From: an archaeon
GTDB taxonomy: Archaea; Iainarchaeota; Iainarchaeia; Iainarchaeales; 0-14-0-20-34-12
DNA: 64,000 bases
Assembly: GCA_038046645.1 (NCBI GenBank)
Contig: JBBSVU010000016.1
Location: forward strand, 652-64,651
Reading direction: 5' to 3'
How positions within the stretch are numbered: the first letter of the stretch is position 1; every line of letters starts with the position of its first letter. A program made the position numbers and the translations under genes. Below are positions 6,474 through 46,799 of this stretch, one piece after another. The notes under the pieces are model-generated. The model saw only the letters and a list, made by a program, of their open reading frames with translations. It was not told the DNA's origin and made no database searches.

Positions 6474-7736
6474 TTATTCACTTTCTAGCAGTAACCATTT
6501 CCATATTGGAATATATTCTATTTCAATATTTTCTTTTATCTCCCTTTTTTCAATATCTTTGGTTATTATAATAGCTTTATTTGATTTCAATTCTTGTGTT
6601 ACTTTTATGGCACCACTTATATTTGGCATATTATCCTGATATTTTACCTCAATAGGCATATTATTGTGGAGAATGTCTATTTCATAATATTTTCTCCAAA
6701 AGAACTTAGCATCTAAATTTGCTGCCACAATGTTTTCTACAATAAATGGAATGTTACTATATATTCCAGCCTCATTTGATAAAAATGCAGATGCGAGACA
6801 ATGTGTTCCCAGGTAGATTTTTTTTGATTTCCTTGCCCTTGCTATTGGGCTACCGCGGTAGTTATACAAAAGCCTTATTAGGAATGATTTTTCCAAGTAG
6901 CTTACATACTTCGAGGCTGTTTGATATGTAATTTTGAACGCAGTTGCAATCTTCTGGTATTCTATTATTGCCCCGGGCTTTAATGCTAGTGTCTTAAATA
7001 TTTCATAGAGTGTTTCTGATTCTTCTATTTTATATATTTTTGGGATATCATAAAGAATTATTTTCTCTATAATCGATTTTATGTATTTGTTTATTTTTTC
7101 AAAATTTTCTTCCCAAATAAGTTCTGGAAAACCACCTTTTACAAAATAATTAGATAACTCTTTCTTGATATCCCCTGCTTGTAGGTTGATATCCTTTATT
7201 TCTATTCCGCGCAGATAAAGAAATTCCCTGAAGTTCAATGGCGTTAGTTCAAAGTCAAATAGTCTGCCTGCTAAACTTTCTTTAGTTTTCTTTATAAAAA
7301 GACTTGATGATCCACTCACAACAAATTTTATTTTTTTATCCAGATCATAATATCTTTTTAAGATTACCTGCCAGTCTGGAATATTATTTATTTCATCTAG
7401 AAAAACATAGGTTTCTTTTAATTCTGTTTTGAGTATTTCATTCTCATACACATTAAGTAGCTTGTCTATTATCTCTGGATCCTTGCCCATTATCTCATCA
7501 AATGAGAAATAAAGTATCCTTTTTGCATCGGTCTTACTTAATAGGCCCTCAATAATATGGTGCATTAGTATTGTTTTTCCAACCCTTCTCAGCCCAATAA
7601 TCGCTATAATTTGCGGATTGTCCAAATACTTTACTATCTCTTGTGTCAAAAACCTTTTTTTTAGTCCTTTAACCTTTTCAATCTCCTTTCCAATCCACCA
7701 AGGGTTGTTTTTTATTGCCTCAGCTATGAGATCCAT
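6474..7736 (-). CDS. AAA-type ATPase with DUF4143-like C-terminal domain
   Basis: Walker A 'GLRRVGKT' and Walker B-like 'YVFLDEIN'. Same architecture as the paralogue at 61728..62996, with shared C-terminus '...WKWLL'. Confidence 0.8.
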   Translation of the reverse strand: MDLIAEAIKNNPWWIGKEIEKVKGLKKRFLTQEIVKYLDNPQIIAIIGLRRVGKTILMHHIIEGLLSKTDAKRILYFSFDEIMGKDPEIIDKLLNVYENEILKTELKETYVFLDEINNIPDWQVILKRYYDLDKKIKFVVSGSSSLFIKKTKESLAGRLFDFELTPLNFREFLYLRGIEIKDINLQAGDIKKELSNYFVKGGFPELIWEENFEKINKYIKSIIEKIILYDIPKIYKIEESETLYEIFKTLALKPGAIIEYQKIATAFKITYQTASKYVSYLEKSFLIRLLYNYRGSPIARARKSKKIYLGTHCLASAFLSNEAGIYSNIPFIVENIVAANLDAKFFWRKYYEIDILHNNMPIEVKYQDNMPNISGAIKVTQELKSNKAIIITKDIEKREIKENIEIEYIPIWKWLLLESE

Positions 7737-7973: not shown

Positions 7974-8933
7974 TTACTTAATATATCTAAGGTAGCCTGC
8001 AAAGAAGTTCTCAAATGTTTTTTTGTATTTTTCCAGGAAAAACCTCTCAAGATTTTTTGTATATCCTCTGTGAAAATCTTCTAGCGACTTAATATAAGAA
8101 TCCCTTTGTGTTTTTCTGATAATTAATGGGGGATAATTCTCATTAACCAACATAGCTAGGGCAATGAATCTGCCTACCCTGCCGTTGCCATCTGAAAATG
8201 GGTGAATCTTTTCAAAGTTCCCGTGGAATAATGCCGACAATTGTAATGGATGGATATTTTCGGTTTTTTCATATATTTCAATTAAGGCATTCATTTCATC
8301 ATGGACTTTTTCCGGCAGTGTTAGTTCTATCTGTGACCCAATTATCTCATTTGGAAATTGCTTATACCCTACCCTAGTGTCAATGTTTTTCATCAGCATT
8401 TTGTGCATTTTTATTATATCCTTCTCAGATATTTTAAACTTTTTTTTGAGGATTCTCTCCAGTACCTCTCTTGAATTTTTTGTTTCATATATCTCCCTTA
8501 AATCCTTGCCTTCTAATGACTTGCCTTCAAACATAATAATAGCAACATCTTTCAGTGTTAAGGAACTGCCTTCAATTGCATTTGATTCATATGTGAAGTT
8601 TGCAGTAAATCTGTCAAAAACATCCCTGAGCTGCTCTTTGGAAAAATTTTTTAATAATTCGCCGTAGTCTACCTTAATTCCTTCAATCTTTTTAATCTGG
8701 TCTTCTGAGAAAATTTCATCATTTTTATACATATTTACTGCATATGAAGCATTTGCCATCTTTTGCTTCTCAATAAAAAAAGATTTATTTTCTTTTGCCA
8801 ATTCATCAATGCTCTTATTTTTTGCATCAACAAGCTTCTGGAGTGAAATAACCTTGCCATTAGGCAAGCGTATCGATTTCATCAAATATGTGTATTCTTT
8901 GCCTTTAACTTTCTTAACTGATAAATAGGTCAT
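7974..8933 (-). CDS. Fic-family protein (AMPylase-type), class II-like with internal inhibitory motif
   Basis: Fic motif 'HPFSDGNGRVGR'. Upstream 'SNAIEG' fits the (S/T)xxxE(G/N) inhibitory-helix motif. Confidence 0.85.
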   Translation of the reverse strand: MTYLSVKKVKGKEYTYLMKSIRLPNGKVISLQKLVDAKNKSIDELAKENKSFFIEKQKMANASYAVNMYKNDEIFSEDQIKKIEGIKVDYGELLKNFSKEQLRDVFDRFTANFTYESNAIEGSSLTLKDVAIIMFEGKSLEGKDLREIYETKNSREVLERILKKKFKISEKDIIKMHKMLMKNIDTRVGYKQFPNEIIGSQIELTLPEKVHDEMNALIEIYEKTENIHPLQLSALFHGNFEKIHPFSDGNGRVGRFIALAMLVNENYPPLIIRKTQRDSYIKSLEDFHRGYTKNLERFFLEKYKKTFENFFAGYLRYIK

Positions 8934-9128: not shown

Positions 9129-12100
9129 TCAGTCCGTAGAGAGTTTATTTTCTCCACCAAAGTCAGGGTCTTTAGTAAGTTTCATCGTTTCCCAATTTAT
9201 TTCACAATACCTTTCTTTTTTGCCTGTAGCAATATAGCAGGAATACCCTGTACAGCATTGGCTATTTGCTGTGCATTGTTCATTATTACCTTTACATGTA
9301 ATCTCCATTCCTGCAAAGTCCTCATCTTTTTCAGGATCTTTAATTTTCATATCTTCGCCAAAGTCAGGATCATTTTCAGTAGGTATCTTCATTCCTGCAA
9401 AGTCCTCATCTTTTTCAGGATCTGGTTCAATAGATTGGCAATTTCCTTCAGCATCGCAACTCTGTAAAGGCCCTGCAGATTCTAAGTCCGTTGTAGCTGC
9501 AGGTGCATTCCCTTTTTCAATGTCCTGCATTAATTGTTCTGAATTCCATACAAGGCTAAATTCAGCTTCAGAAGGAATGACGCAAACGTGTTTTGTTTGT
9601 ATTAAGTCAAGGTGTTCTTTCAGGCTATTGACTTTCTTTGGTTCAGCTGTTATTAGTTTTACAATGCCGCCTTGTGGATCTTTTCCCTGTGCTTCACTTT
9701 TTTCTTTGCTGCCCCAAGATTGTGAGCTTAGGTATAACATCTCTTTTGCGCAGGTTATCTCTAACTTAGATGGAAAATTATTCTCCCAATCTGGCATGAA
9801 CAATACTGTTTTATGCATTCCCTGTTCCCCTTTCTTTAAATGTAAAAATGGTGCTTCAAAGCTTTCACAAGTTAATCCCTTGAACATGCCCTTGTCCTGT
9901 GATTTATTCAACCTAACTGTTTTTCCGCTGGGTGAAAGCCAATTTATAAATCCAGGGACATAATCCGCAGGCAATGGGCTATTGGCTGTTCCTAATAACC
10001 TTAATGCAATATCCTGCTTATTTGTATTTATGTTTAGCAATGTAGGAATAAATCTTTTCATCCTTATCACAAAGTCATTGCCCTCTAGCAGGTTTGTTAT
10101 CTTAATTAAGTCGCTTCCAGCAAATAGCGGAATACGGCTGTTATCAAAGGAACTGGCTCCATCTATCAGATTATTTACTGATTTATTGTCTTTTCCAGTT
10201 GCTTTTTTTAAATTAACAGTTGGGGTAAGAGGCACAAGCTGGCTTTCATCTATTCCAGTTCCGTATCCTTCTCTTTTATTGCCCATTTCTGTTCCTACAA
10301 ATCCGTCAAAAGGTATCAGCAATAAAGGATTCTTTGAATAGGATTTTTTCCCTGCATTGTCAATCTCGCTCAAATTATTGATTTTTCCATAGTATAAATC
10401 AATTACTGCATTTTCACCCCTAGTTATTTTGTTGTCCTTTGTTTTTTCGACCGCGAAATTAATCAACCTTAAATAGGTTCCACTTTCTATTGCATTCTTA
10501 ACCTCTTGGCTGAAATCTAGGTAATTATATGTTTTCTCTGCAGCCACTTTCTTTTGGTATGTTGAATAAACTTCTAAATCTATGTTATATGTGTTTTTGA
10601 AATCTGCCTTGAAATCAGCAGCTTCAAAATTATCGCCTATAAGATAAACTGAATTAAGCGGATTTATGGTTGCCCCATTAATTACTAAATCATCTGCATC
10701 AGCCCATAATTTGTTTTTTCCATTATCGCTTTGAAACTCAATATTGCTGGCATTCTTTGCAACAGTTATCTCTACAATATTTTTATTTAATTGTTCAAAG
10801 AAGCCTTTCCAGGGTGAGCCATAATCCTTTGTGCTGCAATTGCCACTTGTTGTGTTATTTTCAGTTATTGTTATACCCCCCACTGTTATATCATAGTTAT
10901 TTGGGTCCATTGAATAGCATCCGTTTGCAGCCCTTGTCTTGTTAATTGTAGACAATTGTAATGTTATTTCATAGAAATCATCCATTGACATTACAAATAT
11001 GCCTTCCTTGTAATCTGTGCTGAATAACCCTAAATCAATGAATTGCATTACAATTTTATTATTGCTTTTTTTAATGTCTTTTTTAATTATTATCAATAAA
11101 TCATTTTCGTTGTTATTTCCGCCATAACATTTATTTGCGTAATATTGCAATCTGCCTATGTTTAATGAGGGTATTGCAACGCTTGTAGTTGGTTTGGCAT
11201 ATTCTTTTTCATATTTATTACTGCTAAAGTTTCTGACCTGTTCCCAGTCAATATCCTCTATTACCTCTCTGCTTACATCACTAATTGTTTCTTTAATTGC
11301 TTCTGTACCTTTATATGCTGCTACCTTATCATATGTTAGGGCACATGAATTATTTTCACTTAATACTGCGGTTCCTTTTACATAATAGAGCCTTTTTTCA
11401 TTGGTTTTATGGTTCTGAATTATAACAGTGTTCTTCACAATAGGCACCAATTCAAGCAGAGTATCCATTCCTGTGCAATCTAAAGCCTCACAAATTGCTT
11501 TTACATGCTCTGCAGGAATCTTGCTTAAATTAGCCTGAAGTTCCTTTTGTTTTTCAATTGTGCTTAACATGAATTGTGCTGCATCACAGAAATAGTTGTT
11601 GCAAGTATCTGCATTTATATTCTTAACATCCCAATCCCACAATATTCTGTCTAACCCATATTTCTGATAAGCATCTTGGCCGGTTTCTGCAGTCTCCATG
11701 CCTGCACAGAACAAAGCGCTTTTTTTGACTGCTGGTTCACTGGCTGCAGCTGCAGCTTTAACCACAGCTTCTTTCCTTTCATCTAAATCAGCTTTTGCTT
11801 CTTCTTTCACTTCTTTCTTTATAATGCATTTGAAATCCTTGCATTCTTTTTTATCATCTGCACAGTCCTCATTAGTTATGCACTGCCCCTTTTTGCACAT
11901 TTTTTCATAACATACTTCGTCTGTTTTACATTCTGCTTTTTCTGTACAGCTGCCTCTTTTTTTGCAAAAATTATTTACACAGTTTTCGCCTGCAGGGCAA
12001 CAATTGTTGTTTGAACATTGAGTTCCCGGAGCTACTAAACAATATTTTTTCCCGCCTTCTTTGAATGGTTCGCAGATGTTTGATGCACATTGAGCTGCTG

Positions 12101-13415
12101 TTAAACAATTAGTTCCACATTGTAATTTTGGCACACATTTCTGTTTAGAACAGAAGTATCCTGCCTCACACAATTCATCCTTTAAGCATTCTACACACTT
12201 CAGTTTTGCACTGCAAACCCCAACCTCTATTGTTTCTGATTGTGTGCCCCAATATTGGCAACCATCATTCTCTTTTTTGCCTTCACATGGCTCTTTTGGT
12301 TTTTCTTTAGCTTTTTCAATACAACTGCCATTATCACATTTTTCAGTTTCCTTACAATGTGCATCCCCCAAACAAAGCACGCATTGCAGTTCAGCATCGC
12401 AGTATCCAGTAATTTCTAGTTCTTTATTTATTTCACAAACATTTCCTGCGCTGACACAAGGGCTTGCGGTTTTTTCCCCTAAATATCCTGCCTGTGCAAG
12501 CCAATCATCAGCAAGTGCTTCTGATACATAAGTATTAAGCAAAAGAAGCGTTGATGGCTGCCCTGATTTTTGATAAGCAGTTTCATCCAACCTTTTGAAA
12601 AACATTCCCATGACATAATCATATTTTTTGCAGAATAGCCTGCTTTTTCTGATTATGGTTTGTTCCTCAGGGTATTTGAATTCAGTGTCATTCCTTACCA
12701 AAAGCCCGTCATATACTATGCCTTCTCCATTTCTATTCCAGCAATTAAACATATACCTTACCGAATCTTCATAATTTGGGCCAGCCATATCCTTATTTTC
12801 TTCAACCTCGCTCTTGTCTGGTTTTGTTTTTAAATAATCATAAAACGGGATTGTGAAATTTATTGCTGTATCAGTGCCATTTTTATTTACTGCGGCAGTC
12901 ATTGAATATTGTGAAACAGATGCTTTTACAAACCTCAATACTTTATCTTTTGGGTTTGTTTCATCAGCAGCACAAGCCAGCATCTTTATTTCTTCCTTTT
13001 TCTTTCCTTTTACTTCAGCAGCATGCTCTGTTTTGTACTGTTCAATAAGGCTTTCTACATAGGGATCATACTTTCCGCCACTTTGGGCTCCCATTTCGCA
13101 AAAATCAAATATAATTTCCTGTACCTTCTGTTGATTTAGCGTTAACAATACCAAGGAAAGTTCCTTGCTAGCCTTGTCTGTAATTGATATTTTAACCGTG
13201 TTATCAATTTCATATCCTAAATTGCTTGGATTGACAATTGAATAGGTAGGCAATAACCTGCTCTCTCCTTCTACTAATTGGCCAAATTCAGTAGGATATG
13301 TATTGCCCGCATTTACGTTAACTAATGCTTTTATCTGCCCTCTGCCGTAAACATCCCCAATAAATACACTAAAAAATAGTACTAACAATAACCCAATCCA
13401 AACCTTATTCTTCAT
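9129..13415 (-). CDS. Giant secreted cysteine-rich surface protein (1428 aa), paralogue of 53291..57223
   Basis: Signal peptide 'MKNKVWIGLLLVLFFSVFIGDVYG'. Cys-rich EGF-like tract at about aa 330-545. A ~720-aa core is co-linear with the other giant protein ('FCAGMETAETGQDAYQKYGLDRILWDWD', 'NKREGYGT', 'LVWNSEQ'). Confidence 0.8.
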   Translation of the reverse strand: MKNKVWIGLLLVLFFSVFIGDVYGRGQIKALVNVNAGNTYPTEFGQLVEGESRLLPTYSIVNPSNLGYEIDNTVKISITDKASKELSLVLLTLNQQKVQEIIFDFCEMGAQSGGKYDPYVESLIEQYKTEHAAEVKGKKKEEIKMLACAADETNPKDKVLRFVKASVSQYSMTAAVNKNGTDTAINFTIPFYDYLKTKPDKSEVEENKDMAGPNYEDSVRYMFNCWNRNGEGIVYDGLLVRNDTEFKYPEEQTIIRKSRLFCKKYDYVMGMFFKRLDETAYQKSGQPSTLLLLNTYVSEALADDWLAQAGYLGEKTASPCVSAGNVCEINKELEITGYCDAELQCVLCLGDAHCKETEKCDNGSCIEKAKEKPKEPCEGKKENDGCQYWGTQSETIEVGVCSAKLKCVECLKDELCEAGYFCSKQKCVPKLQCGTNCLTAAQCASNICEPFKEGGKKYCLVAPGTQCSNNNCCPAGENCVNNFCKKRGSCTEKAECKTDEVCYEKMCKKGQCITNEDCADDKKECKDFKCIIKKEVKEEAKADLDERKEAVVKAAAAASEPAVKKSALFCAGMETAETGQDAYQKYGLDRILWDWDVKNINADTCNNYFCDAAQFMLSTIEKQKELQANLSKIPAEHVKAICEALDCTGMDTLLELVPIVKNTVIIQNHKTNEKRLYYVKGTAVLSENNSCALTYDKVAAYKGTEAIKETISDVSREVIEDIDWEQVRNFSSNKYEKEYAKPTTSVAIPSLNIGRLQYYANKCYGGNNNENDLLIIIKKDIKKSNNKIVMQFIDLGLFSTDYKEGIFVMSMDDFYEITLQLSTINKTRAANGCYSMDPNNYDITVGGITITENNTTSGNCSTKDYGSPWKGFFEQLNKNIVEITVAKNASNIEFQSDNGKNKLWADADDLVINGATINPLNSVYLIGDNFEAADFKADFKNTYNIDLEVYSTYQKKVAAEKTYNYLDFSQEVKNAIESGTYLRLINFAVEKTKDNKITRGENAVIDLYYGKINNLSEIDNAGKKSYSKNPLLLIPFDGFVGTEMGNKREGYGTGIDESQLVPLTPTVNLKKATGKDNKSVNNLIDGASSFDNSRIPLFAGSDLIKITNLLEGNDFVIRMKRFIPTLLNINTNKQDIALRLLGTANSPLPADYVPGFINWLSPSGKTVRLNKSQDKGMFKGLTCESFEAPFLHLKKGEQGMHKTVLFMPDWENNFPSKLEITCAKEMLYLSSQSWGSKEKSEAQGKDPQGGIVKLITAEPKKVNSLKEHLDLIQTKHVCVIPSEAEFSLVWNSEQLMQDIEKGNAPAATTDLESAGPLQSCDAEGNCQSIEPDPEKDEDFAGMKIPTENDPDFGEDMKIKDPEKDEDFAGMEITCKGNNEQCTANSQCCTGYSCYIATGKKERYCEINWETMKLTKDPDFGGENKLSTD

Positions 13416-14040
13416 TAGGTAATCCCTCCCCTATTGCTAAGCAATTTTCTTCTATTGTAACTATATAATCTTTTAACTCATAATAGTTAATAAATGCTTC
13501 GTCTTCATCTTCTAGGTAATTTTCAAGCCCTAATTCCTGATTTTCTGTAGGGTGCGCTACTACATATTCTTCTAATTTTTTATTGTTCTCAAGGACTAAA
13601 TTATAGGCATTTTCATTATCTTGGATGGTGTTATCTAAAAGATTAAGGTTCTCGCATAATCCTTTGCTGCTTAATTTCAGCAATGTTTCTTCACCCTTTT
13701 TCAGCTTTGACTGCACTTTTAATTCATCAAGCAAAGCAACATACAAATCAACCAAATCAGCCAGTGCTTTATTGTCAGCGTTTTTTGCCTGCAAATCCAG
13801 CAAGTCTGCCTTTGCTGTTTCCACTTTTTCTTCACTTAACACAGCCAATTTGGATTCGCTGACTGTTTCAAAAGCTACTTCATTGCTTGCAAGAATATTA
13901 TTTGCAGAATTTGCCAATGCTGCAAACCCTTTTTTATCCGCAGTCTGCCCTTTTGGCAGGTTCCACAAAACATAAACTGCGGCAATAACCACAATTATTG
14001 CCAATATCCCATATACAAATCTTTTTTCCATATATACCAT
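13405..14040 (-). CDS. N-terminally anchored coiled-coil protein
   Basis: Single TM segment 'FVYGILAIIVVIAAVYVLW' followed by a helical acidic region. Overlaps the giant gene start by 11 nt. Confidence 0.6.
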   Translation of the reverse strand: MVYMEKRFVYGILAIIVVIAAVYVLWNLPKGQTADKKGFAALANSANNILASNEVAFETVSESKLAVLSEEKVETAKADLLDLQAKNADNKALADLVDLYVALLDELKVQSKLKKGEETLLKLSSKGLCENLNLLDNTIQDNENAYNLVLENNKKLEEYVVAHPTENQELGLENYLEDEDEAFINYYELKDYIVTIEENCLAIGEGLPNEE

Positions 14041-14079
14041 CCTTCCTTGAGAATTGTTTAGTTGTTTTATATATTACTT

Positions 14080-15231
14080 TTATTTAATATAAATATATTT
14101 GTTTCTCAGCATAATGAGTTTTTTGATTAAACTGGCAGTATATAACTTGTTTTTTGGCTTATTGACCTTAAGCTTAGTTGTTTTGCTTTTTTGTGCTTGC
14201 CCTGACCCTGCGGTATTGTTATTCTTTTGTGTTTGATTATTGCCTGCAATAGTTACCAGACCAGTGCTATTCTGTGCTGAGTTTGTAGAAGTAGTTGCAG
14301 TGTTTTGTGTTGAGCTTGAATTAGAATTAGTTGCATTTGCCGTAGTGCTGCTTTGTGTTGAAGCTGAATTATTATTTGCCGTATTTGTTGTACTACTATT
14401 ATTTTGAGCCAGTGTAGGATTTGAAGTATTTTCAGTATTTTGAGTTTGGGTATTATTCCCAGTATTTACATTAGCATCATTTGTTTGATTTCCAGTATTT
14501 GAATTATTATCCGTATTTTGTGTTTGCCCTGATGTGTTATTATTTACATCATTGTTAGTTGCACCATTATTTACATCGGCGTTATTTGCATTATTGTTTG
14601 TATCTTGAGCAGGGTTTTCTGGTTGTGCAACTACCGAATTTTTATAACTTGCATAATGCCCGACTATCACCCTATCAATATAGGTATTGGAATAAGCATT
14701 AACCGAACCAGCATCAACATCCTGCCAGCCGTATCTGTATGCACTGGCTGTTTTGTATAAATCATTTGAATAATAAGTCAATAGGGATTTCAAATACCAG
14801 CAGCCTCGGTCGATATTTTCTTGAGCATTGTATGCATCATTCATAATAGGGGCATCTTCATATTTTGCTGTTGAGGGCATATTCCATTGCCAATCCACTG
14901 TTGACACTGTTGGAACCCCGGCAATCCATTCGCCTGTCAATTGGAATAAACCTTTTCCATAATATTGCCCAAACCAGTTGGTTTCCCCTACCTCGTATGA
15001 TGTTTTTTCAGATTGATTCACTGCATTTGGATTGAAGTCAGACTCCAGTTTTATGATGGCAGCGATAAAATAAGGGTCATCTATGCCATATTTTTCTGTG
15101 CAAATACTTACTATATCATTCCAATATACTTCAATAGGTTCGCTTTCAATCTTTGCAGGTATTTGATAATCATAAGCAAATCCGCCTGAAAGCAATGCCA
15201 GCAGAAAAATGGCCGTTATATATAGTTTCAT
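14080..15231 (-). CDS. Secreted SLT-type lytic transglycosylase-like protein with N/T/S-rich C-terminal stalk
   Basis: Signal peptide. SLT pattern 'LESDFNPNAV' ... 'GKGLFQLT' ... 'AYNAQENIDRGCWYLKSLL' ... 'ASAYRYGW'. Confidence 0.7.
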   Translation of the reverse strand: MKLYITAIFLLALLSGGFAYDYQIPAKIESEPIEVYWNDIVSICTEKYGIDDPYFIAAIIKLESDFNPNAVNQSEKTSYEVGETNWFGQYYGKGLFQLTGEWIAGVPTVSTVDWQWNMPSTAKYEDAPIMNDAYNAQENIDRGCWYLKSLLTYYSNDLYKTASAYRYGWQDVDAGSVNAYSNTYIDRVIVGHYASYKNSVVAQPENPAQDTNNNANNADVNNGATNNDVNNNTSGQTQNTDNNSNTGNQTNDANVNTGNNTQTQNTENTSNPTLAQNNSSTTNTANNNSASTQSSTTANATNSNSSSTQNTATTSTNSAQNSTGLVTIAGNNQTQKNNNTAGSGQAQKSKTTKLKVNKPKNKLYTASLIKKLIMLRNKYIYIK

Positions 15232-15341
15232 TTATCGCACCATATTTAACAAAATAATACTTGTTTTAATATGTTTTGTGCTTTACTAATGTGTTACATA
15301 ATTTTTTAATTGTGTAGCAGTTTAGCAAGAATGTGAATTAA

Positions 15342-18137: not shown

Positions 18138-18498
18138 ATATATTGCAGATACCTATGCCTGGATTGCATATTTTAACAAGAAAAAATTTAAGGGCATAAT
18201 AGAGAAAGAGATTGTTGATACCCCTACAGTAGTTATTGCTGAACTTATGAGAACCTTGGTTAAAAAAAATGTGAGTACAAAGGTTATTGAAAATATTATG
18301 GCCTATGTATCCAGCAAAGGTTTGATTTTGCCTTTAACTATTGAAGAAGCAAAAAAATCAGGGATAATTGCACAAAAGGAATCACTTCCTCTTTTTGACG
18401 CTATAGTGTACTCATATGTTGTTGAAGAAAAAGATAGGCTCTTAACCGGCGACGAGCATTTTAAAAACAAGAAGCAAGTCATATTTGAAAAGGAATAA
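18118..18498 (+). CDS. vapC: PIN-domain toxin (VapC-like)
   Basis: 'RYIADTYAWIAYF' N-terminal acidic site, internal 'FDAIVYS' and 'LLTGDEHF'. Alternative start at ATG 18127. Confidence 0.7.
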   Translation: MTSMQFRYIADTYAWIAYFNKKKFKGIIEKEIVDTPTVVIAELMRTLVKKNVSTKVIENIMAYVSSKGLILPLTIEEAKKSGIIAQKESLPLFDAIVYSYVVEEKDRLLTGDEHFKNKKQVIFEKE

Positions 18499-18511
18499 TT
18501 GCGGTGGTAGG

Positions 18512-19762
18512 ATGAAAGATTACAATGTAAAGGATATGAAGTTAGCAGATCAGGGTTTAATGAATATTGAATATGCAGAATCGCAGATGGGTGCATTATT
18601 GCAAGTGCAAGAACGTTTTAAAAAAGAAAAGCCATTTAATGGGATGAAAATCGGGATGGCTTTGCATGTTACAAAAGAAACTGCTGTTTTAGTAAAAGCC
18701 CTTATTGCAGGAGGGGCAAAGGTTGCCATAACTGGTTGTAATCCTTTATCAACACAAGATGATGTCGCAGCTGCGCTCGCAAAGCTCGGGGTAAATGTTT
18801 ATGCCTGGAAAGGGGAATCTACCAAAGAATATTATGAAAATTTAAATGCTGTCCTTGATTTTGAGCCGAATGCAACAATTGATGATGGCTGCGATTTAGT
18901 TACGGAAATCCACCTTAAAAGGCCGCAATTGATTAAGGATATTGTTGTCGGGACAGAAGAAACTACAACCGGAGTAATAAGATTAAGGGCAATGGAAAAA
19001 GACCATGCTTTGAAATATCCAGTTGTTGCTGTCAATGACAATAAAACAAAGCATTTAGTAGATAACTTCTACGGAACTGGACAGAGTACTATTGATGGTT
19101 TATTAAGGGCAAGCAATACTCTTTTTGCAGGCAAGAATTTTGTTGTCTGTGGCTATGGTGATTGTGGCAAGGGATTAGCGCAAAGGGCAAAAGGCATGTC
19201 CTCAAATGTTATTGTCTGTGAGGCAGATTCTTTCAGGGCATTGCAGGCTTCTTTAGACGGTTTTAGGGTAATGCCTATTTTAGAAGCTGCTGAATTAGGT
19301 GATATTTTTATCACAGTTACAGGAAATAAAAATGTCATTCGCTGGGAGCATATGAAAAAAATGAAATCCGGTACAATTTTGGCAAATTCCGGTCATTTCG
19401 ATGCAGAGATTGATGTTAAAGCATTGAAAGATAATGCAAAATCCTGCAGAAGAATTAGGCCTCAGTTTGATGAATATGTTTTGCCAAACGGAAATAAAAT
19501 ATTCCTTGCAGGAGAAGGCCGCTTAGTGAATTTAGCTGTAGCAGAAGGCCATCCTTCAACAGTCATGTCTTTAAGTTTCTGCGGTCAGGCTTTAGCTGTT
19601 GAATACGGTGTGAAAAATAAATTAACACCAGCAGTTCACACATTGCCATTATCAGTTGATGATATGATTTCTGATTTGCAATTAAAAGTAATGGGAATTA
19701 GAAAAGATGTTTTGACTGAAGAGCAGAAAAAATATTTAGGTTCATGGAAGGAAGGGACATAA
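18512..19762 (+). CDS. ahcY: Adenosylhomocysteinase
   Basis: 'MKDYNVKDMKLADQGLMNIEYAESQMGALL', NAD site 'VCGYGDCGKG', and 'GHFDAEID'. The track ORF starts 27 nt earlier. Confidence 0.9.
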   Translation: MKDYNVKDMKLADQGLMNIEYAESQMGALLQVQERFKKEKPFNGMKIGMALHVTKETAVLVKALIAGGAKVAITGCNPLSTQDDVAAALAKLGVNVYAWKGESTKEYYENLNAVLDFEPNATIDDGCDLVTEIHLKRPQLIKDIVVGTEETTTGVIRLRAMEKDHALKYPVVAVNDNKTKHLVDNFYGTGQSTIDGLLRASNTLFAGKNFVVCGYGDCGKGLAQRAKGMSSNVIVCEADSFRALQASLDGFRVMPILEAAELGDIFITVTGNKNVIRWEHMKKMKSGTILANSGHFDAEIDVKALKDNAKSCRRIRPQFDEYVLPNGNKIFLAGEGRLVNLAVAEGHPSTVMSLSFCGQALAVEYGVKNKLTPAVHTLPLSVDDMISDLQLKVMGIRKDVLTEEQKKYLGSWKEGT

Positions 19763-19844
19763 GCCCTTTCTTTTATTTTTTCCTTCATTTTAGGGTAAAG
19801 TGTTAATTCTTTTTATCTGTTTCCGGATAACGTGCCAATTCTTT

Positions 19845-20387
19845 TTATTTATTTTCCCTATTTAACCTTGCCTTTTCTTTCCTTAACCATTCTTCAAATC
19901 TTTCATCATCCTTTATTATTTCTTCAAGAATTCCACTTACTATTTCATAATGTTTTTTGTTTTTCCCATCAAGCCTGAAATAAAGAGGCCCTTGCGAACT
20001 GGTTGAACCGCCAGAGCCAACCTTTAATATTAGGCTTATTGGCTTTGGATTTTCCAGAAAAGCACTCATTGCTTCTTTCGGTTTCAGGTATTCCGGATGT
20101 TTCTCAAGGTTTTTTATTGGCAAGCATACCTGGACAGAATCAGTTGCCCTCACATTTAGGAATCTTTTTAGCCCAGCATTCCTGCTTATGCCCACATTCC
20201 ATTTTTTATTAGACCTTTCATAATGCCCAGCATATTTTATTGGGCAATTGTAATGCATGTGCATATCTTGGGGCGATGCACCAAACCTGTTTCTCTTGAG
20301 TATCTGCCATACAATGCTCCTCTGAGCAGGCCCATGGTCTGCTTTCCGTCTTTCCCTTTTCATTCTAAATGGTTTTTTTGTAGGCAT
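19845..20387 (-). CDS. Hypothetical protein, paralogue A (basic N-terminus)
   Basis: Shares 'MPT.KKP..KRERRK..GP..RS', 'LNVR.TD.V.VC.PI.N..K.P.YL' and 'FRLDG' with 20445..20927. Confidence 0.55.
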   Translation of the reverse strand: MPTKKPFRMKRERRKADHGPAQRSIVWQILKRNRFGASPQDMHMHYNCPIKYAGHYERSNKKWNVGISRNAGLKRFLNVRATDSVQVCLPIKNLEKHPEYLKPKEAMSAFLENPKPISLILKVGSGGSTSSQGPLYFRLDGKNKKHYEIVSGILEEIIKDDERFEEWLRKEKARLNRENK

Positions 20388-20444
20388 ATCTGAACATAGA
20401 ATATTGTGTTCAATTAGAAATAAAAATAGAAGGGATTATATTAT

Positions 20445-20927
20445 TCACGTTTTTTTCATATCCCTTTGCGCTAATGTTTCAAGCACTTTGCCCACTATTT
20501 CAGGGTGCTTTGCCCCATCCAACCTAAAGAAAAGCGTTCCAAAAAAATCATTGCCCGGAACCTTTACAAGCAGGGTTATTTCTTCTTTATTTTCCCTAAA
20601 AATTTCCAAAGCTTTTTCAGACTCTAAATATGCCGGATTCTTTCCAATATTATATATTGGTGAGCATACCTCAACTTTATCAGTTTCCCTTACGTTTAGC
20701 ACTTCTTTTAATTCATCCAACCCTTTGAGATTATATTTGCTTGGCGCTCTCGCAAATATCCCGGAAAAATGTGTTGCACTGCTTTTTTTTGTAAGTACAC
20801 TTTGATATGGTGCGCCAAACCTGGCTTTTTTTGAAAAAAATCTGATAAGTTTGCTTCTTGAATTAGGCCCGTAGTTTACTTTCCTTCTTTCCCTTTTTCT
20901 TGCAACAGGTTTTTTTATAGTAGGCAT
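20445..20927 (-). CDS. Hypothetical protein, paralogue B (basic N-terminus)
   Basis: Tandem paralogue of 19845..20387. No known motif recognised. Confidence 0.55.
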   Translation of the reverse strand: MPTIKKPVARKRERRKVNYGPNSRSKLIRFFSKKARFGAPYQSVLTKKSSATHFSGIFARAPSKYNLKGLDELKEVLNVRETDKVEVCSPIYNIGKNPAYLESEKALEIFRENKEEITLLVKVPGNDFFGTLFFRLDGAKHPEIVGKVLETLAQRDMKKT

Positions 20928-20977
20928 AATAATAGCTATAATCCATAATTAAAAATAAAAAACAGATGGGCGTGCGG

Positions 20978-21205
20978 TTAAATTAATTTTCCAAATTCTT
21001 CTCTTGTTATTTGCAGGTCTTTTTTGATTATTTTGAGCAATAATCCGGGCCCAATTGGTTCATTTCCGTGAATTGGGATTGTGGTTTTTCTTCCATCAGG
21101 ATGCGCAAATCTATGATGGCTTCCATCAATTCGTGTTTGTTCAAAACCAAGCTCTTTCAGGATTTTAATTAACTTACCTGCTTTTATTGCTTTTAATTTG
21201 CTCAC
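20978..21205 (-). CDS. hicA: HicA-family mRNA-interferase toxin
   Basis: 'LIKILKELGFEQTRIDGSHHRFAHPDGRKTTIPIHGNEPIGPGLLLKIIK'. The start codon is GTG (21203-21205). Confidence 0.8.
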   Translation of the reverse strand: MSKLKAIKAGKLIKILKELGFEQTRIDGSHHRFAHPDGRKTTIPIHGNEPIGPGLLLKIIKKDLQITREEFGKLI

Positions 21206-21328
21206 TCATAACGTCTGGCTTGCGGAAGCCATTGCCTTCAGGCAATGGTATCGTATTTTTTCTTGAAACATTAACAGTATTGTTCCGCAAGCCCACGCCT
21301 TTAGGCGTGGGTTCCCAGACGTTATGAC
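21203..21328 (+). repeat. Structured palindromic element E1 (126 nt)
   Basis: 13-bp outer stem 21206-21218/21315-21327. 9-bp inner stem 21219-21227/21283-21291. 8-bp tetraloop hairpins at 21229-21248 and 21292-21311. GC-rich relative to flanks. Confidence 0.65.
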
Positions 21329-21540
21329 TATACCACAATCTTTTGGATTCCAATTAAAGTAGTGTTAGTAATTTCTTCTTTCTCTTTGAGACAAAGCTTG
21401 ATAGCTTCTTTGGTCCTTTTCATTAATTCATCAAGGGTTTTTGCTTGCGTATGGCATCCTTCTAATTCTGGAACATCAGCAATAAGCCAGTTATCTTCAT
21501 CCTTTTCTATTATTACAGTAAATTCTCTTTCCATAAGCAT
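21328..21540 (-). CDS. hicB: HicB-family antitoxin (UPF0150-like)
   Basis: 'FTVIIEKDEDNWLIADVPELEGCHTQAKTLDELMKRTKEAIKLCL'. TAG stop at 21328-21330. Confidence 0.75.
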   Translation of the reverse strand: MLMEREFTVIIEKDEDNWLIADVPELEGCHTQAKTLDELMKRTKEAIKLCLKEKEEITNTTLIGIQKIVV

Positions 21541-21600
21541 CTTCTTGTTTAATTATTATTTTAAACTTATCCAATTATCAAAAATAAAAAATAGATGGGA

Positions 21601-22314
21601 TTATTTGATTGAATCCCACATGACCCTGTCTTTTGGGTTTATTGTTACTCCGCTGCCTGTTATTTCAAACGGATGTATGTACTTTGACTGGTTTGTGCCC
21701 CTCATTTTTTTGACAAAAATGCTCCTGTTTGGCGGGCTGAAGTATAATGCGACAATTCCATCAACAACAAATTCTTCTACTCCCATTGATGAATATTCTG
21801 TTTTCAATCCAGTGGTTTCTGTTGTCAATAATGTAGTACAGTCCAAATCCTTCAATTTGTCCGTAAATCTGTACAACATATTCCTGACCCTTGCCTGCTC
21901 AGGCATCCAGATGGCTAAAGCTGTAATACTATCAATCACTAATCTCTTTGCGCCTATTTCTTCAACAAGTTTGGATATTACCTTTAATTCATCATCTATT
22001 TTTTTCTGCATTTCTTTCGTATCTGAAGTATCACTCAAATTTAACCTATAAATTCGCATCATGTTCTTTTCTTGCAGGCTTCTTATATCCCACCTGAAGC
22101 TTTCCATGTTCCATACAATATTCTTTAGGTTTGTTTCAAGTGTGACAAATAGCCCAGGCTCTTTATTTTCCAAAGCGCCTCGGTATAAATATTGCATTGC
22201 AAAGATTGTTTTTCCTGTTCCCGACCCCCCAGAAACCAAGAAAGAAGACCCTTTTGGAATCCCTCCTTCTACTAGGTCATCCAAGCCAGTAATTCCACTT
22301 TTTACCCTTTCCAT
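21601..22314 (-). CDS. KaiC/RecA-superfamily ATPase (single domain)
   Basis: 'SGITGLDDLVEGGIPKGSSFLVSGGSGTGKTIFAMQYL', and Walker B 'RLVIDSITAL'. Confidence 0.75.
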   Translation of the reverse strand: MERVKSGITGLDDLVEGGIPKGSSFLVSGGSGTGKTIFAMQYLYRGALENKEPGLFVTLETNLKNIVWNMESFRWDIRSLQEKNMMRIYRLNLSDTSDTKEMQKKIDDELKVISKLVEEIGAKRLVIDSITALAIWMPEQARVRNMLYRFTDKLKDLDCTTLLTTETTGLKTEYSSMGVEEFVVDGIVALYFSPPNRSIFVKKMRGTNQSKYIHPFEITGSGVTINPKDRVMWDSIK

Positions 22315-22460
22315 TAAATCACCTAATCCTTGTTAAAGAAATGATTATATTAATATAAATTTACTTTATATAATTCTTTCTCTTGCCAGGGCATGCTTAT
22401 TTTTAGCTATCTTGCGATAATGTTTAATTCATATATTGTTCTGCCATTATTATTTATTTG

Positions 22461-22483
22461 GCATAAAGCAACTTGCTTTATGC
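22461..22483. promoter_or_regulatory. 10-bp perfect inverted repeat upstream of metF
   Basis: gcataaagca-act-tgctttatgc, about 100 nt upstream of the metF ATG. Confidence 0.3.
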
Positions 22484-22585
22484 TTAAATTTAGCTTAATT
22501 TTAATATTCCTATATGAATAATCTATTCAGTAAAATATTAATATGGGAATATTGAATATATTTAGGCAAGAGCTAAGCAGAATTT

Positions 22586-23581
22586 ATGGAGTTTAACGAT
22601 ATTATGCGATTGTTTGATTTGCGCGGAAAAAAGATAACTGACATACTGGCTGAAAATAAATTCACGCTTTCAGTTGAAATTGTGCCATTAAGGAATGGCA
22701 AGAGTTATAGTGAAATTTTATCTGCAATTGAAAAGCTTTCCGAGTTAGGCGTAGATTTTGCTAGTGTGACTAAGGGGGCTGGCGGCGGTTTAAGAGGGGG
22801 TTCTTTGCCTTTGAGTTATTTTATTACGCAAAGATTCGGGATTAATTCAATAGCTCATTTCACCTGCATGGAAAGGACAAAAGAGCAGATTGAAACAGAA
22901 TTGGTTGATTACCACCTTTTTGGCATAAAGAATATTTTAGCATTGAGAGGGGATCCACCAGTGGGTATAAATAACTCTAACCTAAAATCAGATTATGATT
23001 ATGCTTGGCAGCTTGTTAGGCAGATAAATTCCATGAATAATGGAATCTATCTTAAGAGGGCTGAAACAGAAACTGGCGCAGGGGAAAAAACTGATTTTTG
23101 TATTGGGGTAGCAGCCTATCCTTCAGCACCTGATATTGATAAACAAATAGGGTATTTGGCAAAAAAGGTTGATGAAGGCGCAGAATATGCCCTAACCCAA
23201 ATGATTTTTGACAGTTCTGTTTATTTTAATTATTTGGACAAGTGTAAAGATTCTGGAATAAACATCCCAATAATTCCAGGAATAAGGCCAATAGTGAATA
23301 AGGCGCAATGCGAATTCAGTGAAAAATTCTTTGGTTTAAAGGTGCCTAATGAGCTTAAGACTGCTGTTTCTGTCAATGACCCGGCAATTGCAAGGGAGCA
23401 TGGTTTGAAATATGCAATAGACTTATGTGATGAATTGAAAAAAAATGGAGCCCCAGGCATGCATTTATTTGTGATAAATGACATTAATGCAGCATGTGAA
23501 ATAGTAAATTCGATGAAAAAAAAGGAAAAAAATTCGCAATTTTGCAGGGATTTTTATAGTAATCCCCCTAAAATAAATTAA
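22586..23581 (+). CDS. metF: Methylenetetrahydrofolate reductase
   Basis: 'LSVEIVPLRNG', 'FASVTKGAGGGLRGGS', 'ALRGDPP', and 'YALTQMIFD'. Confidence 0.85.
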   Translation: MEFNDIMRLFDLRGKKITDILAENKFTLSVEIVPLRNGKSYSEILSAIEKLSELGVDFASVTKGAGGGLRGGSLPLSYFITQRFGINSIAHFTCMERTKEQIETELVDYHLFGIKNILALRGDPPVGINNSNLKSDYDYAWQLVRQINSMNNGIYLKRAETETGAGEKTDFCIGVAAYPSAPDIDKQIGYLAKKVDEGAEYALTQMIFDSSVYFNYLDKCKDSGINIPIIPGIRPIVNKAQCEFSEKFFGLKVPNELKTAVSVNDPAIAREHGLKYAIDLCDELKKNGAPGMHLFVINDINAACEIVNSMKKKEKNSQFCRDFYSNPPKIN

Positions 23582-23606
23582 TAACCTGTTCTTCAAATAT
23601 TTTTCT

Positions 23607-24185
23607 ATGACCAAATTGCCCAATTTTAAAATAACTGTTTCCACAAGTGAAATTCTAAAACAATTGCGCGATGAAAAACCAGATGAAAGGACAAAAAGAA
23701 TGATTGCCAGTTTGATAAATAAAAGCAAAGCCCTAATTAATCCTAAAGCAATTGTTAAAGAATTCAAGATAACCAGAAAAGGGAAAGATTCTGTTGAAAT
23801 AGGCAAAAAATTAAAAATAAAAAGCAGCAATGTTGCATTCTTGCTTAAGGATTGTGAAACTGTAACTTTTTTTGCCTGCACGCTTTCCTCAGATTTCCAG
23901 GAAAAATCCGAAAATCTTTTAGTTTCCATAGTTGTTGACGCTATTGGCTCAGTTGCTGTTGAGAAACTTGCTGAAAGGGTAAACAAAGTAATTTTTGAAA
24001 AGGCAAAGAAAAAAGGCTTTAAAATCACCCAAAGGTACAGTTGTGGGTTTGCAGACTGGTCTCTGGATGACCAGCCAAAGATATTGAAAATGCTTGATGC
24101 TTCAAAGATTGGATTGAAGGTGAATAAGGCAAATATCTTGATTCCGAGAAAGTCAATTACTGCAATAATCGGGTGGCATAAGTGA
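23607..24185 (+). CDS. Stand-alone methionine-synthase activation-domain-like protein
   Basis: C-terminal 'RYSCGFADWSLDDQPKILKMLDASKIGLKVNKANILIPRKSITAIIGW' resembles the MetH reactivation domain. Overlaps the metH start by 4 nt. Confidence 0.65.
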   Translation: MTKLPNFKITVSTSEILKQLRDEKPDERTKRMIASLINKSKALINPKAIVKEFKITRKGKDSVEIGKKLKIKSSNVAFLLKDCETVTFFACTLSSDFQEKSENLLVSIVVDAIGSVAVEKLAERVNKVIFEKAKKKGFKITQRYSCGFADWSLDDQPKILKMLDASKIGLKVNKANILIPRKSITAIIGWHK

Positions 24186-29212: not shown

Positions 29213-29755
29213 ATGGTGAATATGCAGGATGCAAAAAAGGTTCTGGAAGCAGCATTGTTTATGGCCCCCCGGGCTTTGGATTTTAATTATTTCAAAAAGC
29301 TTTTAAATTTTGAAACAAAGGAACAGGTTATCCAAACCCTGCGCGATTTAAAGGCAGATTATGATGCAAAAGATTCTGCACTGGAAATTTTCATCAATTT
29401 AGATGATGAAAAAGCCATGATGCGCGTTAAAGGAGATTATCTGCAGAATGTTAAGGAATTGGCAACAAATTCCGAGTTCCATGAAGGCTTGCAGAAAACC
29501 CTGGCTTTAATTGCATTCAAGCAGCCTGTGAAGCAGAATCTGATTGTAAAATACCGAAATGTTAAAGCCTATGACCATATTCACATTTTGGAAGAAAAGG
29601 GTTTCATAAAAAGAATTCCTGCAGGCAAAACATTTATCCTGCATACCACAAAAAAATTCTCAGAATACTTCAACATAGATGCAACAAAAAAGGAAATGGT
29701 CCAGAAGACCGCAGAAAATCCACTTGCCGAGGTTTCTAACCCAAATCCAAGCTGA
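29213..29755 (+). CDS. scpB: Segregation and condensation protein B
   Basis: 'VLEAALFMAPRAL' N-terminus and two winged-helix-like halves ('LEEKGFIKR'). Confidence 0.7.
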   Translation: MVNMQDAKKVLEAALFMAPRALDFNYFKKLLNFETKEQVIQTLRDLKADYDAKDSALEIFINLDDEKAMMRVKGDYLQNVKELATNSEFHEGLQKTLALIAFKQPVKQNLIVKYRNVKAYDHIHILEEKGFIKRIPAGKTFILHTTKKFSEYFNIDATKKEMVQKTAENPLAEVSNPNPS

Positions 29756-34086: not shown

Positions 34087-34614
34087 TTAAATAGCTTTAT
34101 TGCCGGGCAAAGGTTCTTTGTCTTTTAATATAAAAACAAATCTGTCTTTCTGAAGGACAAAGAGCTCTTTGCCATCTTTTTCATATAAATTGCATAAATC
34201 CTTGTAATCAACCCTTCCCTTGTAATCATATCCTTCATTTTCAAGTTGGGAATTCATCTGCACAACAAGGGTAGCTGCAGAAGTTGAATCTCCTGAGTCC
34301 ACAATAAACATCTTTTTTGAATCAAACCAAATCAAGCCAACATTTCCAGTCATGGTATTATTGTATTCCATTTTAATGTTTGCTGTACCATATATGTCAA
34401 ATATCTGGTCAAAAGATTCAAGTGTTTTATCCTGCAGCACATCAAAATAACTGATTGATTTTTTCTGCTTTTCAATGCCTGCATCTGCTTTTATGAACTC
34501 TTGCGCAATAACTTCTCCTTGGACTGTTGCTTTTGGCAAAAAGGAACAGCCGCTTAACAGCAATGCCCCAAAAAGCAAAGAAATCAATAAAATCAAACTT
34601 AGGGTATTTTTCAT
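34087..34614 (-). CDS. Putative lipoprotein
   Basis: Lipobox-like 'ALLLSGCSF'. Overlaps the stop of the upstream giant gene by 4 nt. Confidence 0.5.
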   Translation of the reverse strand: MKNTLSLILLISLLFGALLLSGCSFLPKATVQGEVIAQEFIKADAGIEKQKKSISYFDVLQDKTLESFDQIFDIYGTANIKMEYNNTMTGNVGLIWFDSKKMFIVDSGDSTSAATLVVQMNSQLENEGYDYKGRVDYKDLCNLYEKDGKELFVLQKDRFVFILKDKEPLPGNKAI

Positions 34615-37760: not shown

Positions 37761-37803
37761 GCCAAATTTAAGTGCTTTGTAATATATATTTTTTTGCAAT
37801 GGA

Positions 37804-37974
37804 TTATTGCAAAACAAAGGTTATTTCATTCAGAAAAAACCCAAACATTATCAAAAAACCCAAAGGTTGGAATATTATTTCTTCCATTATGCGGTCTGCA
37901 AGCAGCGGGACAGCAGCAAAATAAAAAAATGCAGTGATAAATGCAGCCAAGGTTATCCTTTTTATTATTCCCAT
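37804..37974 (-). CDS. Possible 56-aa two-TM membrane peptide (not in ORF track)
   Basis: Manual translation: MGIIKRITLAAFITAFFYFAAVPLLADRIMEEIIFQPLGFLIMFGFFLNEITFVLQ*. A G-rich stretch precedes the ATG. Confidence 0.3.
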   Translation of the reverse strand: MGIIKRITLAAFITAFFYFAAVPLLADRIMEEIIFQPLGFLIMFGFFLNEITFVLQ

Positions 37975-44104: not shown

Positions 44105-44113
44105 TTTTTCCCC

Positions 44114-44911: not shown

Positions 44912-44933
44912 TTTCTTGCCCCCTTCCATTGAT

Positions 44934-46798: not shown

Positions 46799-46799
46799 T

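Follow-up and report, generated by a model that had tools for sequence, protein, structure and literature searches.

Predicted surface giants and an optional lytic transglycosylase in a DPANN archaeon

The 64,000-nucleotide stretch of DNA considered here (positions 652 to 64,651 of contig JBBSVU010000016.1, assembly GCA_038046645.1; hereafter the window) comes, as judged from its genes, from an archaeon within DPANN that is of Iainarchaeota (Diapherotrites)/Micrarchaeota type. On its minus strand lie three neighbouring genes: gene 1 (14080-15231), encoding a lytic transglycosylase of the SLT/GH23 type (383 residues, MEK6973336.1), gene 2 (13405-14040), encoding a small membrane-anchored protein, and gene 3 (9129-13415), encoding a cysteine-rich giant of 1428 residues with a signal-like N-terminus (MEK6973334.1). 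An earlier interpretation made from the letters alone (the sequence-only reading) saw in them a single module for attaching to or breaching bacterial cells. Comparison with related genomes shows that only genes 2 and 3 form a conserved unit and that the association of peptidoglycan hydrolases with the C-terminal core of the giant is facultative, not constitutive. At the same time, assigned hydrolase domains of four classes (SLT, amidase, glucosaminidase and NlpC/P60) recur in a gene cassette that carries this core in other archaea, a separate line of evidence that the system is in some way functionally connected with murein. The locus may well encode a surface contact system equipped with optional wall-cutting accessories.

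The conserved unit is a gene pair

The organization initially described, three minus-strand genes with a 39-bp gap between genes 1 and 2 (14041-14079) and an 11-nt overlap between genes 2 and 3 (13405-13415), agrees exactly with the coordinates of the open reading frames. As a conserved module, the trio does not survive comparison with the closest relative, contig L008, whose housekeeping proteins are 84-96% identical to those of the window. The gene order there is ADK, a homologue of gene 2 (78-81% identity), the giant P0092 and Trm5; the 11-nt overlap is the same and the SLT gene is missing, so that the giant can do without the enzyme. P0092 (1501 residues) is the orthologue of the gene 3 product, the two being 84% identical over their N-terminal halves and 68% identical over the core. 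It also has an insertion of ~150 residues between its cysteine tract and the core (residues ~555-700; L008:7240-7611) that is missing from the window protein. According to blastn and flank alignments, about 46 bp in L008 replace positions ~14105-15255 of the window and both flanks are 86-90% identical. The resulting presence/absence segment of ~1.15 kb (14105-15255, minus strand) is essentially the whole SLT gene. Repeats or mobile-element ends as its boundaries were considered and rejected, the sole repeats being those of the low-complexity coding tail.

Upstream of gene 2, the two genomes share an AT-rich, TATA-like element, AAATATATTTATATTAAATAA...TATATAAAA, together with a GGAAGG motif (14041-14104, minus strand; the TATA-like element itself at 14066-14104). 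In the window, this putative promoter overlaps the final 25 nt of gene 1. Since it is kept ahead of gene 2 whether or not the SLT gene is present, genes 2 and 3 very probably have a promoter of their own. In the more distant relatives L038 and L015, Trm5 and ADK are directly adjacent, which means that genes 2 and 3 were themselves inserted between them; the SLT, Fic and AAA_14/DUF4143 genes were added later in particular lineages. In the window, a Fic gene (7974-8933) and an AAA_14/DUF4143 ATPase gene (6474-7736), both missing in L008, separate gene 3 from Trm5. A second AAA_14/DUF4143 copy is found at 61728-62996.

The lytic transglycosylase of gene 1

By profile and motif criteria, the gene 1 product is an intact SLT/GH23 lytic transglycosylase, and NCBI names it “transglycosylase SLT domain-containing protein”. 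The comparison with Pfam SLT (PF01464) proposed by the sequence-only reading gives 37 bits, above the curated gathering cutoff of 21.3, and the weak sequence matches in the PDB are lytic transglycosylases only, namely MltC and EmtA. A signal-peptide-like N-terminus found by hydropathy scan (residues 1-19, MKLYITAIFLLALLSGGFA; 15175-15231, minus strand), which is presumably cleaved, precedes the catalytic domain (residues ~32-200; 14632-15138, delimited by alignment and motif search). The latter contains KLE63S64DFNPNA (the E63-S64 motif lying within 15022-15051), GLFQ (residues 94-97; 14941-14952), AYNAQENIDRGCWYL (residues 133-147) and AYRYG (residues 164-168; 14728-14742). In alignments with ordinary SLTs, the Glu-Ser and GLxQ columns are invariant. 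AYRYG takes the place of AYNxG, with an exchange of N for R; its A, Y and G are retained, as is Y146 further upstream. The signal peptide and SLT pattern noticed earlier are thus real, apart from the spacing given for the third motif, which was wrong by one residue.

Two lineage-specific insertions, one of ~16 residues between motifs I and II and one of ~23 residues past motif II, are common to gene 1 and its best named homologue, P0003 (52-58% identity), annotated as Candidatus Micrarchaeota. Identity to ordinary short metagenomic SLT proteins is 35-39%. The surroundings of P0003 are not those of gene 1: it follows a TrkA_N gene, on a contig that stops 276 bp past the SLT gene. Metagenome scans for the gene 1-type SLT returned no matches. 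Viral contigs, scanned for this SLT subfamily and also for the core, gave none either, and nothing therefore points to a viral origin. Behind the catalytic domain, an N/T/S/Q-rich low-complexity tail (residues ~201-350; 14182-14631, minus strand), delimited by composition and containing 14 N-x-S/T sequons, is probably a glycosylated linker.

A core shared by two proteins of the window

The core of gene 3 (residues 564-1328; 9432-11726, minus strand) was delimited by alignment, by hidden Markov model and by three conserved blocks. As the sequence-only reading had claimed, it is shared with a second large protein (hereafter the 53291 protein), encoded on the plus strand at 53291-57223 (1310 residues with a signal-like N-terminus; MEK6973382.1, “hypothetical” at NCBI). 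Its residues 324-1079 (54260-56527) align with the core at 31% identity (E 5e-90) over ~765 residues.

An SLT domain in cis had also been proposed for the 53291 protein. The region in question (residues ~113-291; 53627-54163, plus strand) is borderline in Pfam: relative to the cutoff of 21.3, the full-length protein stays below with 16.7 bits and the isolated region passes with 21.4. When aligned by hhalign to an SLT profile built without the 53291 protein, it reaches a probability of 92.3% (E 5.5e-7), the match being confined to motifs I-III. The aligned motifs are RNE146S147YFDPN (E146-S147 within 53720-53746), GLMQ (residues 163-166; 53777-53788) and ENLDVG (53906-53923). The region has unusual insertions, with GHNWG in the AYNxG position, and its AlphaFold model is too poor to be of help (pLDDT, the predicted local distance difference test score, 41.6; pTM, the predicted template modelling score, 0.31). 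The fusion of an SLT-like domain to the core is therefore borne out at the level of profiles, and at that level only. Both SLT-type domains of the window are tied to its only two core-family proteins, one as an adjacent co-directional gene and one by fusion.

The C-terminal domain of the 53291 protein (56537-57223) contains a HEARH sequence of the HExxH type (56999-57013, plus strand; motif search). It has neither Pfam nor PDB support and no homologue beyond its own organism, and a role as metalloprotease would be speculative.

The core family

Word-indexed searches with the core yielded only the paralogue and one orthologue, and an exhaustive HMMER search was used instead, which defines a family of 78 representative proteins at an E value of 1e-3 or better. 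A scan of a genome collection with full-core patterns found nothing; the 15-sequence alignment proved too diverse for patterns. The scan of GTDB species representatives was made with the N-terminal block of the core, which is the most conserved, and brought up 31 core-family loci, almost all of them labelled Candidatus Iainarchaeum or uncultured archaeon; 30 of the 31 are on archaeal metagenome-assembled genomes (MAGs). Named family members are “Candidatus Diapherotrites”. The one locus with a bacterial label, L040 (JAFCBY010000066.1, 8.8 kb, binned as Candidatus Falkowbacteria, a candidate phyla radiation, or CPR, bacterium), has three core-family open reading frames and a giant with immunoglobulin-like (Ig) repeats. 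It is probably a misassigned archaeal contig, with horizontal transfer as the alternative.

The core consists of three colinear blocks, including C..ETG..AY.KYGFDR.L..W...C...FCDA.QF, and both window proteins match it end to end. Most family members are 2,300-3,000 residues long and carry the core at the C-terminal end; at the other end, a segment conserved among them leads into a transmembrane (TM) stretch. In the 29 members scanned with Pfam, the partners are the Ig-like domains CarboxypepD_reg, SpaA, Big_1, SdrD_B and bMG3 and, more rarely, Peptidase_S8, Peptidase_M64, Beta-lactamase and Glucosaminidase (one each) and CN_hydrolase (two). The window proteins are short by comparison (1428 and 1310 residues), contain no Ig repeats and have their core flanked on either side by accessory domains. 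P0023 (L009:88-13163; 1691 residues, Candidatus Diapherotrites, “serine hydrolase” at NCBI) has an N-terminal Beta-lactamase-fold domain and may act on peptidoglycan peptides; the next gene encodes a core-bearing giant.

An AlphaFold model of the core from the 15-sequence alignment reaches a pLDDT of 65.5 and a pTM of 0.66. The structural comparison that the sequence-only reading had proposed did not place it: the model matched no solved fold, with no significant hit in the PDB or BFVD, and a sequence-profile search of the PDB with the core was equally negative. The top PDB fold matches, to class II fusogens/fusexins, were dismissed as noise (E 0.1, probability at most 0.06, template modelling score below 0.1).

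Hydrolases recur in a cassette of giants

Some 20 of these 31 loci show the core as part of a cassette with the order giant A, protein B (~560-620 residues, N-terminal TM segment) and the tandem core giants C1 and C2 of 2,400-2,700 residues (L017-L046, e.g., L019:2-20266, L033:3-19678 and L035:2-19758). The two core proteins of the window lie outside this cassette. The C-terminus of giant A varies from one cassette to the next. Since giant A runs off the fetched flank and only its C-terminal 450-1000 residues are seen, the number of hydrolases is a lower bound: Pfam finds peptidoglycan-hydrolase domains in at least 3 of 20 giant-A fragments, with SLT in L029 (43 bits) and L033 (49.8 bits), and NlpC/P60, Amidase_3 and Glucosaminidase together in L019 (same contig as L010). 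Taken together with the ties of both SLT-type domains of the window to core-family proteins, these independently attached hydrolase classes, among them cutters of the stem peptide (Amidase_3, NlpC/P60), speak against mere coincidence and suggest that bacterial peptidoglycan is a relevant target in some lineages. Among the four SLT domains linked to the system (gene 1, the 53291 protein, L029 and L033), mutual identity is no more than 17-28%, a divergence that argues for repeated independent recruitment and not for one inherited fusion.

Gene look-ups in eight other core contexts found SLT in none of them. Two are linked to hydrolases, L010 and L009, the latter through the beta-lactamase-fold fusion, and in the neighbourhood of L015 there is only an unfused gene of the metallo-beta-lactamase fold, ~3 kb downstream.

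Domains of genes 2 and 3

Gene 2 encodes a proline-poor protein of 211 residues (208 according to gene callers) in which a Pfam scan recognizes no family. It had been described as a single-TM coiled-coil protein. A hydropathy scan does show one TM segment (residues 8-26), but the coiled coil finds little backing in a crude test of 3.5-residue periodicity, where the heptad signal is weak (maximum z of 2.3 in one window of the test). Kinship with cassette protein B was considered and rejected, as the B-family model matches nothing in the window.

The gene 3 product, preceded by a Shine-Dalgarno-like GGGGAGGG, begins with a lineage-specific domain (residues ~25-320; 12456-13343, minus strand) that has no Pfam or PDB match and is found elsewhere only in P0092. 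Next comes the cysteine-rich tract (residues 327-530; 11826-12437), delimited by its cysteine spacing, which holds 33 of the 58 cysteines of the protein with a regular C-x5-6-C spacing. The region behind the core (9132-9431) combines acidic DPEKDEDFAGM repeats with a small knottin-like cysteine cluster, for which Pfam gives weak, sub-threshold Dickkopf/toxin-like matches. The cysteine richness seen by the sequence-only reading is real, and a signal-like N-terminus fits the secretion that it proposed. Its description of the tract as EGF-like found no confirmation, although NCBI names the protein “EB domain-containing protein”: EGF/EB repeats remain below the Pfam threshold (EB, E=1; DUF7107, 18.9 as compared to a cutoff of 24.6). 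The core, moreover, measures ~765 and not ~720 residues. Metagenome scans for gene 3 orthologues returned no matches.

Archaeal source and export

The archaeal source that had been assumed is supported by several observations. NCBI labels the window proteins as archaeon, and the backbone of the window is syntenic with the Candidatus Iainarchaeum MAG L038 at 40-62% amino acid identity. The synteny extends to L012 and L015, with protein identities of 40-69% across the three. A Trm5/TYW2 gene is immediately beside the module, and Orc1/Cdc6 and Alba are encoded on syntenic or related contigs. Other neighbours in the window are an alpha-aminoadipate-type lysine operon, MetH, AdoHcy hydrolase and KaiC-like ATPases. 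The guanine-plus-cytosine (GC) content is even across the genes. The same locus is present in identical form on MAG GCA_964358865.1 (contig CAYHPS010000004.1, 112 kb) and was separately assembled from groundwater of the Hainich (ENA sample, well H52) as well as from three public runs of Logan; ERZ1292620 and ERR3858129 are accessions of Hainich samples with the locus. Yet another assembly of the same organism, L007 (ERZ1286166 contig_3451), is uninformative: it is an error-rich long-read assembly in which the locus is split by frameshifts. In the protein collection, several window proteins are represented in their clusters by such L007 fragments (P0002, P0012), which can mislead homology searches.

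Hydropathy scans show signal-like hydrophobic N-termini on gene 1, gene 3 and the 53291 protein and a TM anchor on gene 2; the first three proteins are accordingly predicted to be exported. No archaeon of this group is known to make a MurNAc-GlcNAc (N-acetylmuramic acid-N-acetylglucosamine) polymer. On established knowledge, it is a reasonable premise that the source organism has no murein of its own.

Interpretation and alternatives

The reading that we favour has two layers. In the first, genes 2 and 3 would form an operon for a membrane-anchored helical protein and a Sec-exported, cysteine-rich giant, whose C-terminal ~765 residues would represent the “head” domain of a lineage-wide group of giants outside the cell. 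The head would form, in most relatives, the distal end of TM-anchored Ig-repeat proteins of 2,300-3,000 residues, for which contact or adhesion to other cells appears the most likely role. In the second layer, gene 1 would be a secreted SLT accessory, acquired or lost as a ~1.15-kb segment just upstream of the operon promoter, while the 53291 paralogue would carry a second, divergent SLT-like domain ahead of the same head. The murein-cleaving domains would thus be optional parts, repeatedly recruited, that could locally cut the walls of contacted bacteria for attachment, for access to cell contents or for antagonism. Of the extracellular apparatus against bacteria proposed by the sequence-only reading, the recurrence of hydrolases in the core cassette and, at profile level, the fusion in cis speak for retaining the general idea; the three-gene unit and the constitutive link have to be given up.

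A number of observations weigh against the favoured reading, beginning with the relative that deploys the same gene pair without the enzyme. The Trm5-ADK interval is an insertion hotspot, so that the adjacency of the SLT gene could be incidental. No hydrolase domain is recognized by Pfam in 17 of the 20 giant-A fragments, and six further large cassette neighbours contain Ig-like domains only, again without a hydrolase. In five of the eight other core contexts, no hydrolase-type domain occurs in cis or in an adjacent gene. Pfam detects SLT in none of the 29 family members scanned, and the SLT profile built here matches none of the 77 other core-family proteins. Such a core family without any association with murein hydrolases had been named by the sequence-only reading as the finding that would speak against it; this is what is seen in most members, 3 of 20 cassettes being different. 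Because the giant is present without the enzyme in L008 and in most of the family, a constitutive SLT-giant partnership is refuted. Pfam detects no LysM, PG_binding, SH3 or other known wall-binding domain in any of the four proteins. The adhesive role of the head is suggested by architecture, and murein as the substrate, like any physical or functional cooperation between SLT and giant, is deduced from domain content. GH23 enzymes can also act on other glycans, e.g., chitin, so that a murein substrate is not proven. To speak of an apparatus for predation or inter-domain interaction remains an interpretation. Finally, Iainarchaeota have been argued to be free-living, according to a work cited in PMC10936187.

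Several other explanations deserve consideration. The SLT could be a stand-alone enzyme, secreted against bacteria or for scavenging peptidoglycan, that was recently gained (or lost in the relative) and has no tie to genes 2 and 3; its place would then reflect the hotspot, and the 53291 fusion would be a separate case of domain shuffling. The clean 1.15-kb indel relative to L008, the promoter-like element that gene 2 keeps for itself, the Fic and AAA_14 insertions into an interval that is closed in L038 and L015, and the different context of P0003 all fit this explanation, as does the fact that archaeal peptidoglycan hydrolases are patchy, often gained and lost, and act as free secreted weapons (PMC12352652, PMC4241558). 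It does not account for the ties of both SLT-type domains of the window to the only two core-family proteins, nor for the independent recruitment of four hydrolase classes to the same cassette in other species. Chance placement beside a core gene in a ~1-Mb genome would occur, at a rough guess, in ~1% of cases. Overall, we regard the stand-alone enzyme as the main rival, possible though less likely than the favoured reading. More doubtful still is the most ambitious version of a common function, a dedicated and conserved multi-giant machine for engaging bacteria with the head as target-binding or envelope-active tip, the hydrolases as interchangeable warheads and the window as a miniaturised two-part version. 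If true, it would mean that a group often held to be free-living has the molecular tools to attach to or prey on cells of another domain, and a new protein fold for doing so.

Specialised lytic transglycosylases serve bacterial secretion and pilus systems. By analogy, the SLT-like domains might remodel the archaeon's own envelope or matrix glycan, or chitin or exopolysaccharide, for the insertion or release of the giants. This explanation would make sense of the linkage of SLT to large surface proteins, of the unusual insertions in both domains with AYRYG and GHNWG for AYNxG, and of the lack of any peptidoglycan-binding module detectable by Pfam in the window proteins. It has to contend with L008, which manages with the same giant and no SLT, with the lack of a known MurNAc-GlcNAc polymer in this archaeal group and with the Amidase_3, NlpC/P60 and Glucosaminidase domains of other cassettes, all specific to bacterial peptidoglycan, and we consider it improbable. 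Hardly credible is a bacterial (e.g., CPR) or chimeric contig on which the SLT is an ordinary housekeeping autolysin. SLT is near-universal in bacteria and L040 was binned with Candidatus Falkowbacteria, but the separate assemblies from several samples, the even GC content, the NCBI label, Trm5/TYW2 beside the module, Orc1/Cdc6 and Alba on syntenic relatives and the archaeal origin of 30 of 31 family loci all contradict it.

Other genes of the window

Three more cysteine-rich open reading frames of the window have signal sequences. The one at 7-1341 (444 residues, 31 cysteines) has an 85% identical homologue in L008 that is ~50 residues longer at the N-terminus. The second (29938-32721; 927 residues, 41 cysteines) contains an esterase/Abhydrolase_2 domain and comes after a ScpB-like gene (29213-29755), at a site where a core-family protein is encoded in L012, L015 and L038. 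The third (34611-37817; 1068 residues, 89 cysteines) has no Pfam match. Lysine genes of the alpha-aminoadipate/LysW type at 41905-51325 (homocitrate synthase, aconitase-family protein, class-III aminotransferase, M20 peptidase) make for a lysine biosynthesis unusually complete for a DPANN archaeon; the homocitrate synthase (49937-51325) has a C-terminal Lrp/AsnC ligand-binding domain. A methyl-cycle cluster at 18485-26518, also present in L001, comprises AdoHcy hydrolase, MTHFR and a MetH-like protein of 778 residues without activation domain, and is interspersed with HicAB and PIN toxin-antitoxin genes. No tRNA or Rfam feature was found in the 64-kb window, and its PHROGs and NCBIfam scans gave nothing useful.

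Significance and relation to known systems

Neither SLT enzymes in DPANN archaea nor the idea that they serve against bacteria is new, and gene 1 itself is already annotated as SLT by NCBI. Large extracellular SLT proteins, fam00969, were described by Castelle et al. 2021 (PMC8204110) for Pacearchaeota and Woesearchaeota, with Rinke 2013 and Castelle 2015 cited for earlier cases. Large GH23 proteins are known from Woesearchaeota (Vigneron et al. 2022, PMC9723730), lytic murein transglycosylase genes from three Micrarchaeota genomes (Chen et al. 2018, PMC5864196) and SLT-type enzymes from DPANN of oxygen-deficient zones (PMC10936187); in all four reports, bacterial walls are the proposed target. 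Modular peptidoglycan hydrolases are encoded in about 5% of archaeal genomes, with patchy gain and loss, and two of these enzymes kill bacteria experimentally (Strock et al. 2025, PMC12352652). A GH25 lysozyme has been transferred to archaea (Metcalf et al. 2014, PMC4241558). Within the literature searched, the Iainarchaeota head family, the A-B-C1-C2 cassette and its repeated arming with hydrolases appear to be undescribed.

Hosts and lifestyles are known for a minority of DPANN archaea, and secreted murein hydrolases belong to the small number of genomic clues that some of them engage bacteria. To these clues, the present locus adds a lineage-wide surface family, a cassette independently armed with four hydrolase classes and, in the window and L008, a pair of close relatives with and without the SLT gene. 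The prediction that follows is that those Iainarchaeota whose versions are armed with hydrolases live in association with bacteria that have murein walls, or antagonise them. As the enzyme class and the general idea are in print, this is a gradual advance.

Like fam00969 and the GH23 proteins of Woesearchaeota, the system described here belongs to DPANN archaea, is predicted to be exported, has SLT on very large surface proteins (the 53291 protein and giant A of L029 and L033) and is proposed to serve alike in binding or breaking down bacterial walls. It differs from fam00969 in its Iainarchaeota-like lineage and in gene 1, which encodes a separate protein of 383 residues instead of being part of a polypeptide of up to ~3000 residues. 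The associated ~765-residue core moreover belongs to an unassigned family, and the hydrolase may be missing or belong to one class or another. The small, Sec-exported SLTs of Micrarchaeota, a lineage sister to Iainarchaeota, resemble gene 1 (PMC5864196); a link to a giant surface-protein family, as seen here, was not given in that report. With the hydrolases of Strock et al. 2025 and Metcalf et al. 2014, gene 1 shares an archaeal host, secretion (predicted in our case) and a patchy presence between close relatives. Those enzymes (M23, GH25 etc.) have wall-binding domains and experiments behind them, whereas the SLT/GH23 enzyme of the window has no recognised wall-binding domain and is known from its sequence.

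Bacterial family-1 lytic transglycosylases (Slt70, MltC, MltE/EmtA; PF01464, GH23) have the Glu-Ser, GLxQ and Y-containing motifs in common with gene 1, which is set apart by its archaeal host, two insertions, AYRYG and a long N/T/S/Q-rich tail. The giants of the core family, finally, recall the giant Ig-repeat adhesins of CPR bacteria and Omnitrophota (PMC8080830, PMC10066038) in being anchored, Ig-repeat proteins of several thousand residues, encoded in tandem and presumed to act in cell-cell contact. Unlike these, they end in a head that has no match in Pfam, the PDB or BFVD and is restricted to Iainarchaeota-type archaea, and the two proteins of the window are short, stalk-less versions of them.

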